Shown here: one piece after another, positions 414-58,161 of the stretch
Layout of the letters: every line of letters begins with the position of its first letter
Numbering within the stretch: position 1 is the first letter of the stretch
Assembly (NCBI GenBank): GCA_037131105.1
Contig: JBAXRQ010000001.1
Span: 258,039-322,038, forward strand
Source: a bacterium
Lineage (GTDB): Bacteria; Patescibacteriota; UBA1384; CAILIB01
Length of the DNA stretch: 64,000 bases
Reading direction: 5' to 3'
The notes under the pieces: model-generated
What the model was told of the DNA's origin: nothing
The model's database searches: none
Seen by the model: only the letters and a program-made list of their open reading frames with translations
Made by a program: the position numbers and the translations under genes

Positions 414-512
414 CGTTACTGTCGTATCCAATTGTCTGGACGGTTCCGCTCCTCATCGAATCTTGGAATCGCAACAAAAATACAGGCTTTGGCGACCTGT
501 CAGGCGTATTGA

Positions 513-527
513 TGTCCCCGGCTGGAC
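513..527. repeat. partial direct copy of tRNA-Arg(TCT) 3' end (att-like repeat)
   Basis: tgtccccggctggac is repeated at 513-527 and inside the tRNA at 792-806. Confidence 0.5.
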
Positions 528-539
528 ATCTCTCGTCGC

Positions 540-690
540 TCCGCTCTCAAAGGGCCCCGCTTCGCCGCTCGAGAGGTGTTAACTCGCGAACGGCCCTTTG
601 CGCTCGCATTGCTCGCTGAACCCGCCACGGGAGAACTCCCGTTCTCCCGACCCCTCTCCCGTTCGAGTCCAGCCTTAAAAACAAAACCAG
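540..690. repeat. REP-like composite palindromic element (copy E1)
   Basis: Shares cgcttcgc, ctcgctc, GC-rich hairpins and cccgttctcccgaccc with the copies at 4770, 5065, 13680, 16515, 51170, 52525 and 57757. Confidence 0.5.
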
Positions 691-790
691 CATATGCAGG
701 GGTAAGAAAAACTTTTGAGACGTATCCCGAAGGGATACTGTAGACAGGCTCCCTTGAGTCGATCAGTTTTTGCTACCCATGCGTATGCTG
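688..790 (+). repeat. fold-back element F1 (conserved core, unique 25-bp stem)
   Basis: Arms are cagcatatgcaggggtaagaaaaac and gtttttgctacccatgcgtatgctg. The core is ttttgagacgtatcccgaagggatac...ccttgagtcgatcag. The 3' arm abuts the tRNA 3' end. Confidence 0.5.
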
Positions 791-865
791 GTGTCCCCGG
801 CTGGACTCGAACCAGCGACCTAAAGCTTAGAAGGCTTCCGCTCTATCCACCTGAGCTACGGGGAC
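789..865 (-). tRNA. tRNA-Arg (anticodon TCT)
   Basis: Minus-strand sequence GTCCCCGTAGCTCAGGTGGATAGAGCGGAAGCCTTCTAAGCTTTAGGTCGCTGGTTCGAGTCCAGCCGGGGACACCA folds as a cloverleaf with a TTCGAGT T-loop. Confidence 0.9.
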
Positions 866-4708: not shown

Positions 4709-4769
4709 TCAGCGTGAGAGTTCAGTGCTTTTGACCTCTGCGGAGTAGAGGGGGACATTTCACATGCTG

Positions 4770-4940
4770 CTTCGCCGCTTTCTGCCCGAGCGCAGAAGCG
4801 CGAGCGCATTTGAGAACCCACGGTTCTCAACGAAAGCCTTTGGCTTTCTGCTCTCCTCCACGGAAACCCTCCCCGGTTAAGTGCTTCGCACCGCTTCGCG
4901 ATCGAACCTTCCGACGTTCAAGTCCCTTCCATAATTACTG
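4770..4940. repeat. REP-like composite element (copy E2)
   Basis: Contains the gagaacccacggttctc palindrome, ctcctccacggaaaccctccccggtt and gttcaagtccc. Confidence 0.5.
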
Positions 4941-5046
4941 AAGAAACAAAGAGAGGCCCCAGAAAAATTTTGAGACGTACTCCGGATGAGTTCAGTGAGA
5001 ACCTTCCTTGAGTCGATCAGTTTTCTGGGGCCTCTCTTTGTTTCTT
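4940..5046 (+). repeat. fold-back element F2
   Basis: Perfect 26-bp arms aagaaacaaagagaggccccagaaaa / ttttctggggcctctctttgtttctt flank the conserved ttttgagacgta...ccttgagtcgatcag core. Confidence 0.5.
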
Positions 5047-5064
5047 TGGTGCGCCCGGAGGACT
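5047..5064. repeat. attL-like direct copy of tRNA-Arg(TCG) 3' end
   Basis: tggtgcgcccggaggact matches 8261-8279 (tggtgcgcccggagggact) at 18 of 19 positions. Confidence 0.55.
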
Positions 5065-5200
5065 TTCACGTCGCTTCGCTCATCGGGAACCCACGGTTCC
5101 CGACGGATTTGCTAAGGACAGATAAATCCTGCCCTCCTCCACGGAAACCCTCCCCGGTTTCCGACCCTTCGGACGTTCAAGTCCCTCCGTTCTTTGACAA
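5065..5200. repeat. REP-like composite element (copy E3)
   Basis: Contains gggaacccacggttccc and cctccacggaaaccctccccggtttccgaccc. Confidence 0.5.
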
Positions 5201-5354
5201 AGCAAAAAGAGCATCCTTGGATGCTCTTTTTGCTTTGGTGCCCTGGGTGCACCTACGTTCGAACTCTTTCTAAAATGGATTGACCATTTAAGGATGGCAT
5301 ACCTAGACGCTGACTCAGTAGAGTCATCTGAAGATACGCCATCCTAGGCAAGCA

Positions 5355-6920
5355 TTATTTCAACGAGAGCGCAAGAATAGCCTCGGTGATGCGTCCAATA
5401 CTTATCGGATCGTGCCAGTCTACTTTGGTAACTGTAATCTGATGCTTTCTCCATGCGCCAATCCCTCTCTTATGATCAGCTATTTCGTCGTCGACGGTTA
5501 TGGATGCAAAGAAGGCCCGACAAAAATATTGGCGGATGATCGGGTTGGCTTTTAAAAAGGCCTTACCAACATCCAAGCTTTGAGCCAGCGCTAAGGCCCT
5601 GTCTCTTCTACCGGTGATGATAGCTAACCGTTTTTCAGCTTCGGCTATAACTTCGGTTGCCTGCGCAATGTCTTTAGCAATTCGTTTCTGGTCTTTCTTT
5701 AATAAGACTCCCGGAACCAGTTTTTCGTAGTAAGCCTGCAGAAGATTCTCCTGGGCAACCTCAAGCTTAGTAAGTCGTTGTTTCTGCTGCTTGACGTCGT
5801 CTTCGGCATAGCGTTGTTCCTCGCGTAATTCTTCATGTATTTTTTGTGCCAACTCGATATGCTCAGTCTCAGAGAATGAGAGCTTATTGAGTGTTGTAAT
5901 TACTACCTTTTCCAGTGAGTCAGCGGGGATGTAGGGTTGCGTACAACCTGCATGCTGTCGATTTATGCAGAAAAAGTAGGAGTAACGGCGTTTCGTTATA
6001 GTATGACAAAGACGACGATTGCACCTGGCACAGATAAGGAGACCAGCAAGACAGTGGAAATGCTTGCGGTCCTTACGTCTGGAGCCAGAATGACTGAGTC
6101 TAACTGCCTGGACGGCTGCGAAGACCGCGGGAGTAACAAGCGGCTGATGGTTTCCCTTATATTCCACACCGTTATAGCTGACGTAGCCGATATAGTAGCG
6201 GTTACACAGTAGGCGAGCCAACCCGCTCCTGCTTATCGGATGAGCAGGTGAGCGGTTGGTAGCTCGCATCCGAAAGCCTCGCCTAGTGAGTTCCGTGAGG
6301 AGATGCCGATCCGTGTAATCCCCGGTGGCGTAGCGTTCAAGGGCGAAGCGTGCAAAATGAGCCCTATCCGGGTCGGGGATTACCGTGCGTATTTCTCGTC
6401 GGTTTGCTCGCTCTATCACGTTAAGGTAGCCAATCGGGGCCTGGAAGGGAGTACCACCCTGCTTGGCCTTCTCAGTCGCCCCTTTCAAGGCCTCAGCCGC
6501 TAGGTTTCCACTATAGAACTCTGCGATAGTGGCCATAATGCCGTGGAGCAGTCTGCCTGAGGGGGTTTCATCGATGTTCTCCGTAACCGAGACCAGTTGG
6601 GCTCCGCCTTTTTGAATGGCCAGGCCGATCACGACGTCGTCATGGAGATTCCTCGCTAGACGATCAAGTTTATGAACAATAACGTAGTCGAAGGCCTTTT
6701 TTTCAGAAAGATCACGAAGCAACAGTTGTAGTGCGGGTCGAGCAGCCGAGCGGGCACTTTCTCCCCGGTCAACGTATTCCCTGATACTTTTAGCTCCAAG
6801 ATCCTGAGCCTTGCGTTTGCAGGCTTCCCGCTGCGCAGGTATGGAGAACCCGTCGCGGTTGGTATTGCCCTTTGTCGCCTGGTCGAGCGTAGACACTCGA
6901 AGATAGATGGCTACTTTCAT
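5355..6920 (-). CDS. large serine recombinase (resolvase/invertase N-domain + recombinase + zinc-ribbon)
   Basis: N-terminal MKVAIYLRVSTLDQ catalytic-Ser motif. 521 aa. C-terminal Cys cluster. Confidence 0.85.
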   Translation of the reverse strand: MKVAIYLRVSTLDQATKGNTNRDGFSIPAQREACKRKAQDLGAKSIREYVDRGESARSAARPALQLLLRDLSEKKAFDYVIVHKLDRLARNLHDDVVIGLAIQKGGAQLVSVTENIDETPSGRLLHGIMATIAEFYSGNLAAEALKGATEKAKQGGTPFQAPIGYLNVIERANRREIRTVIPDPDRAHFARFALERYATGDYTDRHLLTELTRRGFRMRATNRSPAHPISRSGLARLLCNRYYIGYVSYNGVEYKGNHQPLVTPAVFAAVQAVRLSHSGSRRKDRKHFHCLAGLLICARCNRRLCHTITKRRYSYFFCINRQHAGCTQPYIPADSLEKVVITTLNKLSFSETEHIELAQKIHEELREEQRYAEDDVKQQKQRLTKLEVAQENLLQAYYEKLVPGVLLKKDQKRIAKDIAQATEVIAEAEKRLAIITGRRDRALALAQSLDVGKAFLKANPIIRQYFCRAFFASITVDDEIADHKRGIGAWRKHQITVTKVDWHDPISIGRITEAILALSLK

Positions 6921-7026
6921 AGGTGACTCCTTCCGGTAAGTTACTGGTAAGTAGCCCTACTGTAGTTGGTATTCCACCTGGTCAATAAGTCATGACATAC
7001 GTTATGCAAGCAACTAAAATGAGACA

Positions 7027-7060
7027 GTAGAAAAACAGCCCAATCGGGCTGTTTTTCTAC
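7027..7060. terminator. hairpin between fic and recombinase
   Basis: gtagaaaaacagcccaatcgggctgtttttctac. Confidence 0.4.
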
Positions 7061-7095
7061 GGCTACGAATGTCTGGAAAAGATGGAGGCCCAGCC

Positions 7096-7995
7096 CTAGT
7101 TCTTTTTTGAGGTGTCGATAAAGCCAGCGCCAATCTTCCACACTCCTTTTTCCCTAAAAGCGGGAATAGTCTGCCGGGCGGCGGCATTTAAAAGCCTCGG
7201 CAGATAGATCTCATGACTTTTTGCATACTCAGCAACGTCGACTATCTCCTCACCCTTAAGATAGGTGATCCGCCGGTGAAGCGATTCCAACAGCGCTAAG
7301 TAGAGCACGCGCTCCAAGGTATCCGTTTTCTTGGTATCCCGATAATCGTGAAACGCCCGGTAGTAGGTCTTTTTCTCCTTGTTGCGGATGATGAGGATGG
7401 GGTACCCCATGCGGAGCAACTGGTAGTTAATGAGTATACGGCCGATACGTCCATTACCGTCGTTAAATGGGTGGATCGTTTCAAAATCCAGGTGAAACTT
7501 GGCGATTCTTTCCAGGAAATAGGTGGTGTGCTCGCTGGAGTGGCCCACAAGCAGATCTTCCATTAAACGCCCTATCTGCTCTGGCGCCGGGGCGATATGG
7601 GTACCGACACGCACATATTCGCCGCTCTTCCTGAATCTTCCGGCAATCGGGTCATCGATCGTGGCAATCAGCATCTGATGGAGGAAAAGGATCAGCTCCT
7701 CGCTAAGCTCCGCCTCTTGCGACTTGTGACGCACGTATTCCATGACCCGAGCCAGGTTCTTTGCCTCGTAGACCTCGCGCAAGTCAACGTCACGGGAGAT
7801 CTCCATTTCCAAGAGGATCTTCTCCGTCTCCTTAAGAGTCAGAGTAGAGTTCTCAATGGCATTGGAGTTGTAGACGCTCTCGGGAATTTCTGATTCGTCC
7901 AGTATACTAACCAATGATTCCTTGCCAATACGAAGCAGGTCGTACTGCTTCTTACGCTCCTGTAGTATGTTTTTGAGGGGGTTGGTAGTAGGCAT
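7096..7995 (-). CDS. fic: Fic/DOC family protein (adenylyltransferase-type)
   Basis: Canonical HPFNDGNGRIGR Fic motif. Confidence 0.85.
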   Translation of the reverse strand: MPTTNPLKNILQERKKQYDLLRIGKESLVSILDESEIPESVYNSNAIENSTLTLKETEKILLEMEISRDVDLREVYEAKNLARVMEYVRHKSQEAELSEELILFLHQMLIATIDDPIAGRFRKSGEYVRVGTHIAPAPEQIGRLMEDLLVGHSSEHTTYFLERIAKFHLDFETIHPFNDGNGRIGRILINYQLLRMGYPILIIRNKEKKTYYRAFHDYRDTKKTDTLERVLYLALLESLHRRITYLKGEEIVDVAEYAKSHEIYLPRLLNAAARQTIPAFREKGVWKIGAGFIDTSKKN

Positions 7996-8014
7996 AATAT
8001 ATGACTAAAGTATA

Positions 8015-8095
8015 CAATATTCACGACGTAATGTCAATATACCGTGAATATTAGTTGTTTTCGTCATATATTCACGGTATATGCGGAGTTTCTCT
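8015..8095. promoter_or_regulatory. operator-like repeats upstream of fic
   Basis: Three copies of atattcacg, two of them forming the 14-bp inverted pair tataccgtgaatat / atattcacggtata. Confidence 0.4.
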
Positions 8096-8204
8096 TCTTT
8101 TACCTCTCATAGAGTTCGATAATAAGACTGAAAAAGTATAACCTTCAGTTTAGACCTGAACAACCCTGGTGTTAATCGAACTTTTTTAACCTGATAATTA
8201 TTAC

Positions 8205-8232
8205 AAAAGAGAGCTCGATCGAGCTCTCTTTT
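8205..8232. terminator. perfect palindrome hairpin downstream of tRNA-Arg(TCG)
   Basis: aaaagagagctcgatcgagctctctttt. Confidence 0.5.
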
Positions 8233-8260
8233 GTTGTTTCTAACCTGTCAACTTAACATT

Positions 8261-8337
8261 TGGTGCGCCCGGAGGGACTTGAACCCCCGGCCTTCTGGTT
8301 CGAAGCCAGACGCTCTATCCAACTGAGCTACAGGCGC
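8261..8337 (-). tRNA. tRNA-Arg (anticodon TCG)
   Basis: Cloverleaf GCGCCTGTAGCTCAGTTGGATAGAGCGTCTGGCTTCGAACCAGAAGGCCGGGGGTTCAAGTCCCTCCGGGCGCACCA. Confidence 0.9.
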
Positions 8338-13830: not shown

Positions 13831-14074
13831 CACATGGAAAAAGCGGCATCCCCCAGATGCTGCTTATCCCTCCCCCTCCCTGTCCGACTCCCACTCATGA
13901 GTACAAAGAAAAACCCTCCGCAAGCGGAGAGTTTTTCTTTGGAGCGGGTAGTGGGAGTCGGACCCGCGTCTTCTCCTTGGAAGGGAGGTGTAATACCGTT
14001 ATACGATACCCGCGTACCTTACGGTTATAGCACAGAGCGGGGGCCTGGTGAAGCCCCCGTCCGCAGGCGTAAGG

Positions 14075-16496: not shown

Positions 16497-16513
16497 AACG
16501 TTCTGGTCGGGGC
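16497..16513. repeat. partial direct copy of tRNA-Pro 3' end (att-like)
   Basis: ctggtcggggcgcgca occurs at 16497 and again at the tRNA 3' end (16678-16693). Confidence 0.5.
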
Positions 16514-16514
16514 G

Positions 16515-16640
16515 CGCATGACATCTCACCGCTTCGCTTTTGAGAACCCACGGTTCTCAACGCTCACTTTGTTCGCTGCTCTCCTCTGCGGAACCTTGGC
16601 AGGCTCCGACCCTCCGCTAGTTTGAGTCTGCGCTTCGTTA
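16515..16640. repeat. REP-like composite element (copy E5)
   Basis: Contains gagaacccacggttctc and ctcctctgcggaacc. Confidence 0.45.
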
Positions 16641-16680
16641 CAGAATAAAAGAACCATCCGAAGATGGTTCTTTTATTCTG
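16641..16680. other. long perfect hairpin abutting tRNA-Pro 3' end
   Basis: cagaataaaagaaccatccgaagatggttcttttattctg. Confidence 0.5.
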
Positions 16681-16754
16681 GTCGGGGCGCGCAGACTCGA
16701 ACTGCGGACCTCCTGGTCCCAAACCAGGCGCACTACCAACTGTGCTACGCCCCG
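16679..16754 (-). tRNA. tRNA-Pro (anticodon TGG)
   Basis: Cloverleaf CGGGGCGTAGCACAGTTGGTAGTGCGCCTGGTTTGGGACCAGGAGGTCCGCAGTTCGAGTCTGCGCGCCCCGACCA. Confidence 0.9.
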
Positions 16755-16759
16755 AGGAG

Positions 16760-17312
16760 AGATGGTACTGACGTGCTAGCATGTCAGTACCATCTCGACG
16801 AGGGGAGCTCTTCCGCGAAGCGGGAGAGACGCCCCCACACGCCTTGGCGTGTGTTTCGTCTCGGTGTTGATATTGAGGAATGCTGGCGACCGTGCTTGCA
16901 CGGGCAGTAGCATTCTGAGGAGGGACGATTCCGCGAAGCGGAATCTGCCTCCGAGGAGAGATGCAGTGTACGTCTATTGAGTACACTTGGTGTTGGTATT
17001 GGGAAATCAAAGAGAACGAATAACAAAAGCACTCTACCATATCTTAACCGATCAGGCGAGGGCTGGCGCCATGCTCATCCATATTCAACCTGTCTGAACC
17101 TGATAGTGCATTGCATTTCTTCCCCCGACCGGCTACTATATAGGTACGCGTACCAGTGTTTTTCCCAATAAAGACGTACGCCATTACATGCATAACCTGT
17201 CCATGAAGTTAACGAAGCGCCGAGCCGCATACGGGCACGAACGAATCTCGCTATAGCAGCCCACACGGGCGGCCTTCTTTTCCTGTTCTCAGGCGTGGAC
17301 TGAAAGGATACC
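16760..17312. promoter_or_regulatory. 550-bp ORF-poor, hairpin-rich region upstream of rny
   Basis: 38-bp near-perfect palindrome gagatggtactgacgtgctagcatgtcagtaccatctc. Two ccgcGAAgcgg triloop hairpins. No credible ORF. Confidence 0.3.
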
Positions 17313-21075: not shown

Positions 21076-21594
21076 TCACCTCCTGCGACTTGCCGTCAGC
21101 CTCGACTGCACGGCCCTGAACAGCTCGGGGCTGATGATCGCCTGGTGCCTGCCAGGGATCAGCCTGCCGCCGTACCGCAGTGTCCCCGTATAGAAAGGGT
21201 TGGTGAGTATGGCATGGAGGGACGACGGCGCCAGGGACTCCCCGTTACGTGACCGCAGTCCCTTTTCGCCCACGCGCCTACCGGCCTCCCGGATTGAGCG
21301 CCCGCCGGCGACCAGTCGGAACAGTTCCCGGACAAGAGCGGCGGTCGCGGGGTCAGCCTCGATGACCGCACCGGCGCGGGACCTCACGTTGCGGTAGCCG
21401 ACCGGGGCGCAGCCGGGCATCACGCCGGCCTCTGCCCTCTCCCGCATGGCGGACCTGGCCTGCTGGGTCCAGAACGGCTGGAATGGGTGGGTATGCATGC
21501 CTCCAGTATGGCGCCGCGTGCCGCGGTCTTTGAGCCGGGTTGCGCTCGTGCAAGTGGCTTCCTCACCGACGAGTATTATTCCTATGTTAGGCAT
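21076..21594 (-). pseudogene. truncated serine-recombinase fragment (recombinase domain only), GC-rich
   Basis: Recombinase-domain-like sequence (LRSRNGESLAPSSLHAILTNPFYTGTLRYGGR). No catalytic N-domain upstream. Local GC is much higher than the surroundings. Confidence 0.5.
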
Positions 21595-21685
21595 GGCTCT
21601 CGTGCCTTATTTGCTGTCCCGATCCTTGGTAGCCACCAGTTGTTCTGCTGCACCAAAGTTAGATATTCGATAAACCAGGGGTACC

Positions 21686-21721
21686 AACATAAAAGACCGT
21701 CATATGACGGTCTTTTATGTT
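21686..21721. terminator. hairpin terminator
   Basis: aacataaaagaccgtcatatgacggtcttttatgtt. Confidence 0.5.
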
Positions 21722-21768
21722 GGACTCTGGTGGAATCGAAACCGCGGTAGTTCCGCTTCGCTTCGCTA

Positions 21769-34554: not shown

Positions 34555-34658
34555 ACTGAGCGTTGCCGTGCCACAGAAAACCGATCGACTCAAGGAAGAG
34601 ATCACCTGTATTCCTTCGGAATACGTCTCAAAGGTTTTCTGTGGCACGGCAACGCTCA
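34555..34658 (-). repeat. fold-back element F3 (core in reverse orientation)
   Basis: Perfect 27-bp arms ctgagcgttgccgtgccacagaaaacc / ggttttctgtggcacggcaacgctcag. The core is the reverse complement of tttgagacgtattccgaaggaatac...ccttgagtcgatcgg. Confidence 0.5.
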
Positions 34659-34665
34659 GTCAGGG

Positions 34666-45889: not shown

Positions 45890-46907
45890 GAATTCAATAC
45901 CTAATGCACCACCTGTCTGCTACAACTGGTGCATATGAAACACCTAACATCCTACGAGAGAGAACAGATCGCCTACTGGAAGAGCCAAGGCCTTGGTGTG
46001 CGGGACATCGCGGGAAAGGTGAGCCGTGACCACTCGGTGGTGAGCCGGGAACTGAGGAGAAACAAAGGTCAGCTCTTTCCCTACGAGGCGGCAAACGCCC
46101 AGTACTACGCTGAGCGCAGAAGGAGGATCGCCAACCGCCCGAAGCTTTCCAAGCACCGGGAACTTAAGGAGTGGGTACATGACCAGCTCATGCAAAAGTG
46201 GAGTCCGGAACAAATTGCGGGCCGGCTCAAAGAACACCCTCCCGTCCACCTTGCGGGACTCACCATTAGCCACGAGGCCATCTACCAGTGGATCTACGCC
46301 GAGTCTCCCCGGGGCGCTCCCTGGCTCTACCACCACTTGCGCAGAAAGCACGTTGAGCGGCGGCCAAAGTTCGGTAGGAAGAAGAGAAACCAGGTTAAGA
46401 TACCGGAGCTGGTGCCCATTTCGGAGCGTGGGGAACTAGAGGGGTTCGGCCACTTCGAGGCCGACTCTGTAGTCGGCAAGAACCACAAGCCAGGCCTTTC
46501 CGTCCACTACGAGAAAGCCACTCAGTGGACAAAGCTGCACAAGTTAGAGAGCATGAAGGCTGAGGAGACCCTGGCTGCGCTGGAGGGCACCCTCGCCGAC
46601 CTGCCCCTGGGGTTCGCGGCCTCGGTCACGTTCGACCGGGGCGGCGAGACCGCCCTCCACTACCGCCTGAGGGAGTCCTACGGCGTCGCCACCTACCACT
46701 GCGACCCGTACAGCCCCCACCAGAAGGGAGGGGTAGAGAACGTGAACGGCCTGGTCCGCCAGTTCTTTCCCAAGGGCACCGACTTCCGGTATGTTAGTCC
46801 CGAGACGGTCGCCCTGGTAGAGGATCTCCTCAACAACCGGCCCAGGAAGAAACTGAACTACCAAACCCCTAACGAAGCCATGAGTGGTGCATTAGATTCT
46901 TGAATTC
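45890..46907 (+). mobile_element. IS30-family insertion sequence
   Basis: Terminal inverted repeats gaattcaatacctaatgcaccac (left) and gtggtgcattagattcttgaattc (right). Single DDE transposase. Confidence 0.8.
45929..46903 (+). CDS. IS30-family transposase
   Basis: N-terminal HTH (YEREQIAYWKSQGLGVRDIAG), WSPEQIAGRLK motif and an rve DDE domain. Confidence 0.85.
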   Translation: MHMKHLTSYEREQIAYWKSQGLGVRDIAGKVSRDHSVVSRELRRNKGQLFPYEAANAQYYAERRRRIANRPKLSKHRELKEWVHDQLMQKWSPEQIAGRLKEHPPVHLAGLTISHEAIYQWIYAESPRGAPWLYHHLRRKHVERRPKFGRKKRNQVKIPELVPISERGELEGFGHFEADSVVGKNHKPGLSVHYEKATQWTKLHKLESMKAEETLAALEGTLADLPLGFAASVTFDRGGETALHYRLRESYGVATYHCDPYSPHQKGGVENVNGLVRQFFPKGTDFRYVSPETVALVEDLLNNRPRKKLNYQTPNEAMSGALDS

Positions 46908-48270: not shown

Positions 48271-49875
48271 ATGGTATACGCCTTCATCTACACTCGGGTA
48301 AGTAGCGAACGTCAGGTTACAGAGGGAAACGGCACTCAGAGCCAAGAACAGCGTTGTCGCTCATATGCCAAATTTCAAGGCTATCAGGTGAAGTTGGTTG
48401 TCCCTGATGATGGGGTTTCCGGTGCAATATTAAATCGGCCAGGAATGAGGAAGCTACTAGAAGAGCTACGAACATTCTCAGGTGAAAAGGTGGTTATTAT
48501 TGATGATATCTCCCGTTTAGCAAGGGATATTAAAACCCATATTGAACTTCGTGCGGCAATTGCTACTTGTGGGGCAACTTTGGAATCTCCTAATATGAAG
48601 TTTGAAGAAACGGCGGTAGGTGAATATATAGAAATGATAATGGCTGCAACCGCTCAATTTCAGAGAAAAGGAAATAGGGAGCAGGTAATTAATCGCCAAC
48701 GTGCCCGCCTTGAAATGGGGTATTGGACGTTCCATGCTCCCCTTGGGCTACATTATGAAAAGCATCCTCTTCATAAAAAGCTTATCACACCAGATCAGAC
48801 AGCTTACAAATTAGCCGAAGGCCTTGAGCGGTATGCTATTGGGTCAATATCCACAAAAAGGGCACTTGCTACACACCTGATTAAAAATGGCTTCTTTGTA
48901 GATGCTCCGTTGGATATTATAGAAAAAAAGCTAACGAGAGTCTTTGATAACTTAAGCCTTTATGCGGGTTATATTGAGTATCCTGCGTGGAACATTGAGA
49001 AAGTAAAGGGTCGTCATACGGCCATAATAGGTGATGACATATATAACCTATTATTGGGAAGAGAGGGTAATCTTCCTGAGCGGCTAGGGAATAGGACACA
49101 ACCTAACTCAGAGTTTATTCTTCGTAACTTTGTACGGTGTCCGCATTGTATGTATGGCTTTACTGCATCTTATGCCAAACCAGGGAAAAAGTTTCCACGG
49201 TATTATTGTCGTAATCAAAAATGTGCCTACTACGGTCGGACTGTACGGAGAGATATTCTGACTGATAAGTTTGAGGAGCTTCTTAAGTCCCTAGAGGCAA
49301 AAGATGGGCTAATACAGCTTCTAGAGAGACTTAGTAAGGAGGAGTGGACTAAAAAACTAGAGAGCTGGGAAAGAACCGGTAAATTATCTGAGCAAAGAGT
49401 GGAGGAATATTCTAGGGAATTGGCGAGAGCTACTAAGCGCTTGTTAAAAACTACGAATGAGCATGTTGCAGAAGAGATTGAGATAGAAATTGATAAGCTG
49501 CGGGCACAACAGAAAGGTCTTGAAATAGACGTGAGTAAATACCGTCAGTCTCCTCCTAACTTCGAAGAGGCTTTGGGGCGTGTTAGCACTCTTCTTAAGA
49601 GCCCTTACTCCTATTGGAAATCAGGTTCAGATGAACAAAAAAGAACGGTTCACAATATAGTGTTTACCGTTCCCCCTTCCTATGACATAACTAAAGGAGT
49701 TTACACCGTTAGTTATGCGCTTCCATACCAGGTTTTAAATACTCTGAAAGAAGATAGATCTCGGGTGGTGGACCAGAGCCTAAAAACTTGGAACACCTTT
49801 TTCAAGTATGTGGAGGAGTGGGAGCCGAAGCTGGAAGAGATTTACGGCAATTTAGACTACTCAAATGGCTTTTAA
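48271..49875 (+). CDS. large serine recombinase
   Basis: N-terminal MVYAFIYTRVSSERQ catalytic motif, recombinase domain, Cys-rich zinc ribbon (CPHC...CRNQKC) and coiled coil. Confidence 0.85.
   Translation: MVYAFIYTRVSSERQVTEGNGTQSQEQRCRSYAKFQGYQVKLVVPDDGVSGAILNRPGMRKLLEELRTFSGEKVVIIDDISRLARDIKTHIELRAAIATCGATLESPNMKFEETAVGEYIEMIMAATAQFQRKGNREQVINRQRARLEMGYWTFHAPLGLHYEKHPLHKKLITPDQTAYKLAEGLERYAIGSISTKRALATHLIKNGFFVDAPLDIIEKKLTRVFDNLSLYAGYIEYPAWNIEKVKGRHTAIIGDDIYNLLLGREGNLPERLGNRTQPNSEFILRNFVRCPHCMYGFTASYAKPGKKFPRYYCRNQKCAYYGRTVRRDILTDKFEELLKSLEAKDGLIQLLERLSKEEWTKKLESWERTGKLSEQRVEEYSRELARATKRLLKTTNEHVAEEIEIEIDKLRAQQKGLEIDVSKYRQSPPNFEEALGRVSTLLKSPYSYWKSGSDEQKRTVHNIVFTVPPSYDITKGVYTVSYALPYQVLNTLKEDRSRVVDQSLKTWNTFFKYVEEWEPKLEEIYGNLDYSNGF
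49765..49875 (+). repeat. recombinase 3'-end repeat R0 (within gene)
   Basis: gtggtggaccagagcctaaaaacttggaacacc... is repeated at 50475 and 51383. Confidence 0.7.
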
Positions 49876-51169: not shown

Positions 51170-51350
51170 GTGGAGGTGGGAGAATCGCACGTGGCTCTCT
51201 TGCCGCTCGGGTTGGGAACCCTCGCTGGCTCGCTCCCAGGAAACCCACGGTTTCCTTGACGCCGCTGGTGCGGCTACCTTCCTCCACGGAAAAACTCCCG
51301 TTTTCCCGACCCCTTTCCCCGTGTGACTCTCTTTCCTGAAAACTTTACCA
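51170..51350. repeat. att-like motif + REP composite element (copy E6)
   Basis: gtggtggaggtgggagaatcgcacgtggctc followed by ctcgctcccaggaaacccacggtttcc and cttcctccacggaaaaactccc. Confidence 0.5.
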
Positions 51351-51384
51351 ACATAAAAACAGCTCTGAGAGCTGTGTTTATGTT
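51350..51384. other. conserved hairpin at cassette boundary
   Basis: aacataaaaacagctctgagagctgtgtttatgtt, identical to 52649-52683. Confidence 0.6.
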
Positions 51385-51487
51385 GGTGGACCAGAGCTTA
51401 AAAACTTGGAACACTTTTCTTGAGTGCGTATGGGATTGGGAGCCGATGCTGAGGGAGATCTATGGGGATTTGAATCAAGAGGGCTGA
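51383..51487 (+). repeat. recombinase 3'-end repeat R2 (gene remnant)
   Basis: Encodes VDQSLKTWNTLLECVWDWEPMLREIYGDLNQEG*. Confidence 0.7.
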
Positions 51488-51531: not shown

Positions 51532-52521
51532 GTGAATTTGCACGTATCACCCTGTGAAGACGTGCCAAGCTTTTGGTGTTATTCTATACACATGCAAGAG
51601 TTTCCCTATCTCAATACCAAAATTCCAGTTCAACACTCAGCCAAGGAGCTGAGTACTTTCGTCGAAGGGTTTCCTGGCTTTAAATTCTGCATTTATCTCG
51701 CCCACAAGGACGAAGAGGGATGGGAGCGCTCGACCAGCAGGGCTTACATGAACCGCCTATTCCCCCGTTTCCTCTATGTTCCAGTAGACATCCTCAAGGA
51801 AGATGTTGATGAGCTACGAGCCGTCTATTCTCTTGTAACTGTAAGTCCGGAGATTGTTGCCATAAACCAGACCCAGCCGCACAAGAGCAATGCGGTTATG
51901 CAAGAGTTCCTAGAGGAAGGAGATATCCCGGCAAACGTCGACGCCATAGTAAAGGATGAGGGAGGAATGCTGGTAGCGTATGACCTTAACGGACCGTCGT
52001 TCATCCGATGGTTCAAGGACGAGGCGGGCGGGTTCGAGTCGGCAACTGTGCTGCTCGTAGGGGTAGGCGGTGTCGGCGAGCCTATCGCGCGGGCCTTGGC
52101 CTACGAGCACACTGCATGCGTCTACCTTATCGACCCTGTTAGTAAGGTTGAGCTCCAGGCAGAGCTTTCCGAGCTTATGGACGTGGAATACTACACCCTG
52201 CAGCACGACCTGGATCTGCCGGAGACAGTTGAGCGCCTTGTGCTCATCAACTGCGCCGGCAAGGAGGGCGTAGAGGGCCAGTCAAAGGTTGAGGAATGGC
52301 TTACCAGATATAAGGAAAAGGGGTTCATTTTTGTTGATCTCAGGCCTCACTTGGATATTGATATTGTAAAGAAGGCGGAGTCACTAGGGTGGAAGGCTTT
52401 TACGGGTCACGGAATGAATGCCTACAACGATCATGTGCTGGTATCTAAGATTGCGGAGCTGATCGGGGGGACATCGCCAAAATTCGAAGAGTTCAGAAAA
52501 GCAGTGGCAGGGGTCTCTTAG
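51532..52521 (+). CDS. shikimate/quinate dehydrogenase-like NAD(P)-binding protein (cassette C cargo)
   Basis: NQTQPHK resembles the AroE NvTiPhK motif. Rossmann GVGGVG. NCAGKEG. 329 aa. Confidence 0.45.
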   Translation: MNLHVSPCEDVPSFWCYSIHMQEFPYLNTKIPVQHSAKELSTFVEGFPGFKFCIYLAHKDEEGWERSTSRAYMNRLFPRFLYVPVDILKEDVDELRAVYSLVTVSPEIVAINQTQPHKSNAVMQEFLEEGDIPANVDAIVKDEGGMLVAYDLNGPSFIRWFKDEAGGFESATVLLVGVGGVGEPIARALAYEHTACVYLIDPVSKVELQAELSELMDVEYYTLQHDLDLPETVERLVLINCAGKEGVEGQSKVEEWLTRYKEKGFIFVDLRPHLDIDIVKKAESLGWKAFTGHGMNAYNDHVLVSKIAELIGGTSPKFEEFRKAVAGVS

Positions 52522-52524
52522 GAT

Positions 52525-52650
52525 TCGGTGGGAGAATCGCGCGTCGCTCGCTTCCGTTCGGCATAATGCCTCACTGCTCGCTCCCAGGAAACCCTCCCCG
52601 GTTTCCGACCCTTCCGACTGTGCAACTCTCTTTCCTACAAACCCAACCAA
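52525..52650. repeat. att-like motif + REP composite element (copy E7)
   Basis: ggtgggagaatcgcgcgtcgctcgc...ctcgctcccaggaaaccctccccggtttccgaccc. Confidence 0.5.
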
Positions 52651-52683
52651 CATAAAAACAGCTCTGAGAGCTGTGTTTATGTT
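52649..52683. other. conserved hairpin (second copy) at array end
   Basis: aacataaaaacagctctgagagctgtgtttatgtt followed by ggtgga. Confidence 0.6.
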
Positions 52684-52689
52684 GGTGGA

Positions 52690-53057
52690 GGTGGCGAGAG
52701 TCGCACTCGCGTCCAAAGTGGTTGCGGCAGCGGTTCTACATGCTTAGTCCCGTTCAATTTAACCTCCCCTGAGCGCGGGACGACTCTGGGATCGGCTTCT
52801 ACCGTAAGCTTATCAGCGACGACGGTAGCTGTCGCTGGGGCATCCTCACTATATGTCGCTAAGCCTCTCCGGTCAGGAGGCAGAAAGGTAAGCGGCGATC
52901 GTTATTAGGCGAAAGCTGGTGCGAAAGTCGCAGGAGTCAGCAAGCTGGCTACAGCGGACTTAACGCGAGCAAATGCAGTTGCACTTGTGGTGTGTGTACA
53001 TAGTTTAACGAGGGCAAATACACATCCTCGGCATGCTGGTACTGCGACAGGACCACC
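52690..53057 (+). ncRNA. structured RNA, candidate RNase P RNA (rnpB)
   Basis: ~365 nt with no credible ORF and many hairpins. UUAGUCCCG (52744) is complementary to CGGACUUA (52961), as in the P4 helix. ACAGCGGACUUAACG resembles CR-V. GAAAGGUAAGCGGCG resembles CR-II. The terminal segments GGUGGCGAGAGUCGC / GCGACAGGACCACC could pair as P1. Confidence 0.3.
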
Positions 53058-57639: not shown

Positions 57640-57716
57640 GGGCAATTAGCTCAGGTGGTTAGAGCGCCACATTGACATTGTGGAGGTCACTGGTTCGAGT
57701 CCAGTATTGCCCACCA
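57640..57716 (+). tRNA. tRNA-Val (anticodon GAC)
   Basis: Cloverleaf GGGCAATTAGCTCAGGTGGTTAGAGCGCCACATTGACATTGTGGAGGTCACTGGTTCGAGTCCAGTATTGCCCACCA. Confidence 0.9.
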
Positions 57717-57752
57717 AGAGAAAAGACAGGTCTTCGGACCTGTCTTTTCTCT
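57717..57752 (+). terminator. intrinsic terminator after tRNA-Val
   Basis: agagaaaagacaggtcttcggacctgtcttttctct. Confidence 0.6.
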
Positions 57753-57756
57753 TGTG

Positions 57757-57850
57757 TCCGCAGTAGCGGACTCGAAACCATTGGTTCGCTCGCGCTCCTG
57801 CGCTCGGGCAGGAAGCGTTGCAATCGTTCGCCTAGCGAACAGAAGCAAGT
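57757..57850. repeat. REP-like element (copy E8)
   Basis: Contains gttcgctcgcgctcctgcgctcgggcaggaagcg and gttcgcctagcgaac hairpins. Confidence 0.4.
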
Positions 57851-58161
57851 CCAGTTTTTCACTGCTATCAAAGCAGCGAATTAACGCCTGTCAAAATCAG
57901 TGAAACTGACTTGACTGGCGGATATTGCCCACCAAACTGGACATACATCAGGTTAAACCCTGCAAAAGAGAGCCCTTTCCGGGCTCATTTTTTGTGCTTG
58001 TTCAACCTTCCTCGGGTTCAAGTGCTCGATATTGCATAAGGGGGTCTTTGGTATTACCCTGTACATAATTTGAACGCATAATATTTATCGAACACCAGAA
58101 TAATACTTGACAAATATATCGCAAGATGTACACTTAACATGTACACATTAAATACTTCTCT

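Follow-up and report, generated by a model that had tools for sequence, protein, structure and literature searches.

Analysis of the 64-kb window (the whole stretch of DNA that was analysed) showed a family of small elements in which a conserved unit of about 55-66 nt lies at the tip of a long hairpin, the outer hairpin sequences being otherwise unrelated between the copies. The core was independent of the stems that carry it, and plain hairpins of the same class were present in the same window. One core-bearing hairpin had a core-free paralogue, so that the two form a filled/empty pair. The explanation that best accounted for these results, held with moderate confidence, is that a small low-copy module was moved or copied into the dyad of palindromic hairpins that were there before it. 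Copy-specific stems had been described in a first-pass annotation of this DNA; their main explanation, absent from that annotation, lay in the coreless hairpins of the same size and in the empty paralogue, which aligned across the insertion point.

Copies of the family and anatomy of the core

A pattern scan of the window with the two conserved boxes (TTTGAGACGTA-N(20-50)-CCTTGAGTCGATC) gave 3 exact matches, at 714-764 (+), 4969-5018 (+), and 34583-34632 (-), against 0.00 expected from shuffles. The box-to-box core common to copies 1-3 was 50 nt. A covariance model was built from five copies, and the window scan, run with filters off, placed copies 1-3 alone at 92-96 bits, with the next matches at 24 bits or less. 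The claim that the three copies form a real family was borne out, with a conserved apical core, and the consensus written for it (gta[ty]ccg) was only approximate. The covariance model detected no further copies in about 16 kb of extra genome flanking the window edges, giving three copies in about 80 kb scanned, and the family is low-copy. The three copies are located as follows:

686-792, plus strand: copy 1, with stem 686-713 / 765-792, left box 715-722, P2 722-738, and right box region 752-764
4941-5046, plus strand: copy 2, with arms 4941-4966 / 5021-5046 and P2 at about 4977-4993
4961-5026, plus strand: putative inserted unit of copy 2 (inner stem P1 and core)
34555-34660, minus strand: copy 3, with arms 34555-34582 / 34633-34660, core 34583-34632, and P2 34608-34624

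A two-box scan of metagenomes, with follow-up of its matches, recovered six further copies, from metagenome contigs of the same or a sister genome, making a total of nine. Of the matches in JGI metagenomes, three were real new loci, one repeated copy 1, and three were due to chance. Only one chance match, inside a Pyrinomonadaceae coding sequence, was obtained from GTDB representative genomes, a set that does not include the host species, and only one from IMG/VR viral contigs. The family was found in one sample set only. The fold-back sequences were identical across independent ENA, JGI, and Logan assemblies and are therefore real and not an assembly artefact. On Rfam, only the tRNAs and the tmRNA of the window passed at the gathering threshold, and at E<=10 only spurious miRNA-like hairpin matches, far below threshold, were added.

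The module contained, in order, the innermost stem (P1), the left box YTTGAGACG, a 7-bp hairpin (P2), a variable segment of 20 nt (J) with three subtypes, and the right box CCTTGAGTCGAWC. The left box, YTTGAGAC(G/A), and the right box, C(T/A)(T/A)GAGTCGA(T/A)C, were invariant across the nine copies, and the two boxes (CTTGAGWCG) are direct repeats about 39 bp apart. Core identity among the copies was 80-93%. The P2 pairs seen were GTATCCC/GGGATAC, GTATTCC/GGAATAC, GTACTCC/GGAGTAC, and ATATCC/GGATAT. The compensatory changes reported earlier for this internal hairpin, between the first of these (copy 1) and the second (copy 3), were confirmed, and the extra copies extended the covariation to 3 of the 7 pairs. 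RNAalifold folded the whole element as a single long, near-continuous hairpin with a 20-nt 3' bulge and an extra helix of UUGAGAC with GUC(GA)UCAG; the U-G at the base of this box-box helix was kept in 6 of 9 copies.

A promoter in the core was considered and rejected: TTGAGA resembles a -35 element, but inspection placed it 20-21 nt from any -10-like hexamer, and a consensus promoter scan listed nothing within the core. To our knowledge, none of the motifs that might be read into the module fits all copies, whether Type IIS sites (GAGAC/GAGTC), a K-turn, a T-loop mimic, Spo0A-like or DnaA-like boxes, or Hin/Gin-like half-sites in P1.

The copies varied in context and orientation, occurring between convergent genes, between ftsE and ftsX, in an operon spacer, and upstream of dnaA, where they were nested or truncated. 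Copy 1 stands at the hairpin position within the tRNA-Arg(tct) module. Copy 3 lies in the spacer that separates the stop codon of an AAA_18 gene from the start codon side of a response-regulator gene, and it has the orientation of these two genes. Among the extra copies, the one on contig L011 lies between convergent genes, and the one on L009 separates ftsE from ftsX and runs antisense to the pair. At L009 1108-1120, 25 nt downstream of the complete ftsE-ftsX copy, a right box (CATTGAGTCGAAC) was also observed on its own, and it is probably the remnant of a second copy.

Four of the six extra copies (named z, a, b, and c) form a cluster immediately before dnaA, on its upstream side, in a 283,763-bp contig (L013) from the same sample. 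The cluster region (L013 9394-10000) is origin-like: after two perfect DnaA boxes come four cores that are complete and two that are partial, with 9 or 10 boxes of the family within 600 nt directly upstream of dnaA and none elsewhere in 20 kb. Copy z has a stem of 26-28 bp, copy a has none, copy b has 11 bp, and copy c, in the opposite orientation to the other three, has 23 bp. In alignment, z, a, b, and a degenerate copy d showed a spacing of about 101 nt and spacer sequence in common, which points to local tandem duplication and not to independent insertion; a tandem-repeat finder called no array in the cluster. An AAA kinase and a PIN/RHH toxin-antitoxin pair were inserted between dnaA and rpmH on the same contig.

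Stems, plain hairpins, and modules at tRNA and tmRNA ends

The stems had been described as perfect over 25-27 bp, which agreed with copy 2 (26 of 26 pairs) and copy 3 (28 of 28) but not with copy 1, where 24 of 28 positions were Watson-Crick pairs, 1 was G-U, and 3 were mismatches. Likewise, the arms had been called unrelated between copies, and this applied to the outer arms of copies 1-3, which had no mutual similarity, but not to the inner 7-8 bp: P1 was CAGAAAAC/GTTTTCTG in 4 of 9 copies and the related GAAAAGTC/GACTTTTC in a fifth. In z, c (L013-c), and the L009 copy, unrelated paired sequence stood in its place, and copy a had no P1. Stem length over the copies ranged from none (copy a) and 11 bp (copy b) up to 23-28 bp, and the stems therefore depend on context. 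Without P1, the host stems of copies 1-3 measured 18, 20, and 20 bp and so matched the plain hairpins, which measured 16-20 bp. The outer stems of copies 1 and 2 resembled the terminator-like hairpins of this genome, copy 1 being followed by a U-tract on the tRNA strand; copy 3 had no U-tract, and the host stems of copy 3 and z were without the A/T tracts of terminator-like hairpins. Folding z-scores for copies 1-3 were about -6.5 to -12.5 on either strand when compared with shuffled sequence. The arms were also considered as CRISPR-like spacers or guides and rejected, the arms of copy 3, z, and L013-c having no exact match in IMG/VR and the outer arms of copies 1-3 having no second match anywhere in the window.

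Copy 1 and the L011 copy were informative on the relation of core to stem. Their cores were about 90% identical over 73 nt, including the otherwise variable J, and their outer arms were unrelated, which rules out joint descent of core and stem by compensatory drift alone. The stems of both contained several mismatches, and that of L011 also an internal loop.

Plain perfect hairpins with stems of 11-20 bp and a layout of A-tract, GC stem, and T-tract numbered at least 10 in the window, and these were retrieved by the covariance model as core-deleted matches. The plain hairpins and tRNA-associated features that bear on the family are as follows:

5198-5237, no strand assigned: plain hairpin of 19 bp that serves as the paralogous empty counterpart of copy 2
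16641-16680, no strand assigned: plain 18-bp hairpin that begins at the tRNA-Pro CCA end, with the module architecture of copies 1 and 2 and no core
57715-57754, no strand assigned: plain 18-bp hairpin that begins at the tRNA-Val CCA end, with the same module and no core
52647-52685, no strand assigned: plain hairpin that begins at the tmRNA CCA end, with an identical duplicate at 51348-51386, neither with a core
789-865, minus strand: tRNA-Arg(tct), whose CCA end is the last 3 bp of the copy 1 stem
510-676, plus strand: unit U1, comprising an 18-nt near-copy of the tRNA-Arg(tct) 3' end (510-527), a GC-rich body, and an inverted T-arm mimic (661-674)
5047-5063, minus strand: 17-nt duplicate of the tRNA-Arg(tcg) 3' end (8261-8277), an att-type direct repeat adjoining copy 2
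510-865, 4745-5063, 5047-5256, 16505-16693, 57705-57937, 52580-52690, and 51300-51390: the seven modules of the window

The seven paralogous modules at tRNA and tmRNA 3' ends share one layout, namely a direct repeat of the tRNA 3' end (15-18 nt), a GC-rich U body, an inverted T-arm mimic, a hairpin, and the CCA end of the tRNA or tmRNA. The direct repeat is PBS-like and begins with TGG, the U body carries the motifs CTCCTCCACGGAAACCCTCCCCGGTT and GAACCCACGGTTC, and the inverted T-loop/T-stem mimic is specific to each copy and matches the local cognate tRNA. No match to these modules was found in Rfam. They look like miniature integrative elements without an ORF, as in the case of U1 and copy 1, which together make up an ORF-less module between direct repeats. 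Every module has a hairpin, which bears the core in 2 of 7 and is plain in 5 of 7, and the stems of copies 1 and 2 start exactly at the CCA end, like the plain hairpins at tRNA-Pro, tRNA-Val, and tmRNA. The earlier report of tRNA adjacency was correct in that the copy 1 stem overlaps the tRNA-Arg(tct) CCA and copy 2 adjoins the 17-nt tRNA-Arg(tcg) duplicate.

Comparison of two neighbouring modules placed the extra sequence of copy 2. After removal of 4961-5026, the module at 4845-5066 aligned end to end with the module at 5126-5256, both arms included, with 102 of 130 positions identical (78.5%), which puts the 66 additional nucleotides precisely on the dyad. The two modules are a paralogous filled/empty pair, and the paralogues alone are compatible with either direction, insertion or precise loss.

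A large serine recombinase gene (5355-6920, minus strand) lies in a 3-kb island (about 5238-8260) integrated directly after the tRNA-Arg(tcg) CCA, and the island also carries a Fic gene (7096-7995). In another assembly (L018 1040-1260), the same island end borders another pseudo-tRNA end (...GCACCCAGGGCACCA/AATGTT), and the crossover can thereby be mapped to CACCA/AA. For copies 1 and 2, a serine-recombinase crossover point is no more than about 100 nt away. The gene is read here as context for copy 2, and any action of its product on the core would be conjectural. The core as an att site of a large serine recombinase was rejected: the crossover falls right after the tRNA CCA, 5 of 7 junction-adjacent hairpins are without the core, and other copies lie far from tRNAs, so that the earlier suggestion of a recombinase att module had taken context for content.

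Several neighbouring features were also observed. The identical hairpins at 51348-51386 and 52647-52685, each with U-like sequence, are duplicated 1.3 kb apart at the tmRNA 3' end, with a second large serine recombinase (48271-49875) upstream and an ORF (51532-52521) in the region, and a further tandem integration, with the tmRNA gene as its site, is the probable origin of this arrangement. The tag peptide predicted for the tmRNA (ATAFARVKSAVASLLTPATFAPAFA) is of unusual length, being long. A truncated serine-recombinase gene (21076-21594) adjoins a perfect 20-bp palindrome (21684-21723) near tRNA-Arg(cct). Inverted copies of tRNA gene ends adjoin the genes in two long imperfect inverted repeats, one incorporating the tRNA-Gly 3' end (13882-13963; 40 nt, 80%) and the other the tRNA-Pro 5' end (16750-16805; 28 nt, 82%). 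About 6-7 kb left of the window start (L020 15173-16547), a reverse transcriptase (RVT_1) gene stands beside a bAvd gene, and this is a diversity-generating retroelement. The window itself contained seven tRNA genes, a tmRNA, ArgRS, RNase Y, SmpB, and a sortase. The next-best homologues of a flanking protein were about 50% identical, with Parcubacteria-group entries among them, and the host looks like a member of a small-genome, sparsely sampled, CPR-like lineage.

Proposed route and rival readings

The proposed route would begin with long hairpins already present in the genome, which would be of the bidirectional-terminator kind and would include the CCA-end hairpins inside att-flanked modules. 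The conserved module would move, or be copied, into the dyad centre of such a hairpin, leaving the outer 18-20 bp of each stem as host sequence. Under this proposal, the stems are perfect, copy-specific, and mutually unrelated because the outer stem is the host hairpin. The mobiliser may be a structure-specific or ssDNA transposase encoded elsewhere; alternatively, copy-choice template switching between hairpin tips, with A/T-tract microhomology, could provide a protein-independent route. The module would lengthen the host stem by about 14 bp (P1 and the left box with its GUC..UCAG pairing), and the whole would then form one long hairpin on the core-sense strand, probably in a transcribed or single-stranded form.

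No transposase linked to any copy was found. In the 64-kb window and about 60 kb of related loci there was no cognate IS, and the recombinases there were large serine recombinases only, besides which one HTH_38 protein was encoded. This protein (324 aa, 45929-46903) may be an IS30-like transposase. No target-site duplication was seen beside the copies, where the flanks were inverted complements (CCCC on one side with GGGG on the other, and CCAC with GTGG) and not direct repeats, and no terminal repeat was universal, P1 differing in z, L009, and L013-c. No orthologous empty site was found: the nearest relatives among 5.8 billion proteins were about 50% identical, and every assembly of this population carries the copies and is identical at the three loci. 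Insertion, as opposed to precise loss, would be the direction under the preferred reading.

The strand on which the element folds was addressed through the non-Watson-Crick pairs of the stems, with a scoring that treats all such pairs alike. On the core-sense strand, 8 G-U pairs were counted against 1 A-C (p = 0.039), which suggests that one strand folds or is transcribed, and this is probably the core-sense strand. Together with the P2 covariation, the bias indicates that the element exists or matters as a single-stranded fold of the core-sense strand. A G-U bias that follows the orientation of the core would be unexpected for merely bidirectional host terminators, and biased C-to-T mutation on a transcribed strand could also yield it. 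The module could therefore also be a transcribed RNA element.

A functional structured RNA, as the first-pass annotation had suggested, is the first rival to be weighed. Here, a core-sense transcript would use the duplex as a handle, for example for RNase III processing, 3'-end protection, or termination, the boxes and P2 would bind a protein or target, and the stems would vary because their pairing alone was under selection. The P2 covariation, the 8:1 G-U bias, the U-G pairs kept in the box-box helix, and the strong folding z-scores are in its favour. So is the pairing of outer-stem alignment cells (92.6%, vs 72.7% in shuffles). So is the sense of the copies, since copies 1 and 2 follow their upstream U units and copy 3 follows its operon. 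However, no Rfam family was found even at E<=10, no convincing promoter was found by scan or inspection, the L009 copy runs antisense to ftsEX, and the orientation of copy c is the reverse of that of z, a, and b. Copy a is stemless and copy b has only 11 bp, unrelated arms beside cores of about 90% identity do not come from compensatory drift alone, and a palindrome that forms a DNA hairpin would be expected to covary just as well. The covariation and the bias lend modest support to the earlier suggestion, and as a full explanation of the family a structured RNA is possible but rather unlikely.

A wider version of the insertion proposal may be put forward only tentatively and is doubtful at present. 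A structure-seeking element would insert at the tip of any long hairpin (as ssDNA or a cruciform) without target-site duplication and would act on one strand, possibly as an RNase III-processed small RNA from terminator hairpins; or it would seed palindromes that then grow by fold-back copying.

Growth by fold-back copying was also weighed as a rival in its own right, in which the quasi-palindromic core (P1, box-box helix, and P2) inserts or duplicates anywhere and template switching at the fold-back copies the flank in inverted form, creating new perfect arms. The observed arms, of 0 to 28 bp and of arbitrary sequence, are in its favour. The arms of copy 3 and z are not terminator-like, the core is itself a near-continuous hairpin, and the inverted tRNA ends beside hairpins (13882-13963 and the T-arm mimics of the U units) suggest active palindrome growth. 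Against this, both arms of copy 2 have homologues in the empty paralogous hairpin, and copies 1 and 2 sit where five sister modules have a plain hairpin. The close cores of copy 1 and L011 are carried on mismatched stems, with an internal loop in L011, for which old host hairpins are a better fit. This self-extending palindrome is accordingly regarded as distinctly unlikely.

The least probable of the readings, and a very unlikely one, is a DNA module for protein binding, in which the direct CTTGAGWCG boxes and the P2 palindrome would serve as iteron-like or recombination sites for an origin or for large serine recombinases. The boxes are invariant in nearly all copies, 9 or 10 of them lie in 600 nt by dnaA beside two perfect DnaA boxes, and copies 1 and 2 are near crossover points (about 100 nt), but 5 of 7 att-adjacent modules lack the core, recombinase half-sites would be expected as inverted and not direct repeats, and the compensatory changes in P2 and P1 preserve pairing and not a fixed recognition sequence. 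Dispersed copies also occur between ordinary genes, and the origin is a large non-coding "safe haven" that holds other cargo (the AAA kinase and the PIN/RHH pair).

Comparison with known systems and meaning

The preferred reading, a module placed at the dyad of existing hairpins, was compared with known elements. The closest analogue for a core inside a hairpin is the palindrome-targeting insertion sequences: IS1397 and ISKpn1 insert in palindromic units, and IS621, ISPpu9/10, and ISPa11 insert in REPs (PMC1525189, PMC12288879). In these systems, as would be the case here, mobile DNA lies inside pre-existing intergenic palindromes and the inverted-repeat flanks are those of the host (PMC1525189, PMC12288879). 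They differ in being autonomous elements of 1-2 kb that encode a transposase and use one conserved REP target, whereas the insert here is non-coding and about 66 nt, the host palindromes differ in sequence, and insertion is at the exact dyad.

The view that the family is neither a classical MITE nor a REP was upheld, the defining tests for both having failed. REP, REPIN, and BIME elements are likewise short intergenic palindromic repeats that form long hairpins, are located at gene ends, and are possibly moved in trans (PMC3116915, PMC3333891), but REPINs have conserved stems, variable loops, hundreds of copies, and a RAYT, whereas the loop is conserved here, the stems are variable and unrelated, and the copy number is low (three in about 80 kb). 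No RAYT or Y1 transposase was seen in the regions examined. Bacterial MITEs such as Correia, ERIC, RUP, and Nezha are also small, non-coding, structured, intergenic, and sometimes nested or truncated (PMC3184786). In contrast to them, the family showed no target-site duplication, no cognate IS in the window and related loci, and no shared terminal inverted repeat, P1 being present in 4 of 9 copies and in related form in a fifth, and its terminal boxes are direct repeats. Membership in any Rfam family was likewise rejected, no score reaching the gathering threshold.

Bidirectional intrinsic terminators resemble the host hairpins in their A-tract, GC stem, and T-tract and in their position between convergent genes or right after tRNAs; they have a loop of 3-8 nt, and here a structured module of 50 nt replaces the loop. 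Integron attC sites are imperfect palindromes that fold as single strands, with structure kept and sequence mostly free, and strand-specific folding is suggested in both. In attC, however, the conserved R and L boxes are basal and the variable part is apical, the opposite of the arrangement found here. An attC site was rejected because each copy has its own stem base, the inner GTTTTCT departs from GTTRRRY, and no tyrosine integrase lies near any copy. A conserved apex on a stem derived from the host would be unusual among small intergenic palindromic or mobile repeats.

If the module does seek hairpin tips regardless of their sequence, it would offer a compact case of DNA insertion directed by structure, and it would also show terminator hairpins gaining new apical RNA modules. 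If it is merely a low-copy selfish repeat, its practical use would be to mark strains and to counsel caution in the prediction of terminators and sRNAs in such genomes. The context may outweigh the module itself, as the ORF-less CCA-end modules beside large-serine-recombinase islands bear on the remodelling of very small genomes in uncultivated bacteria.
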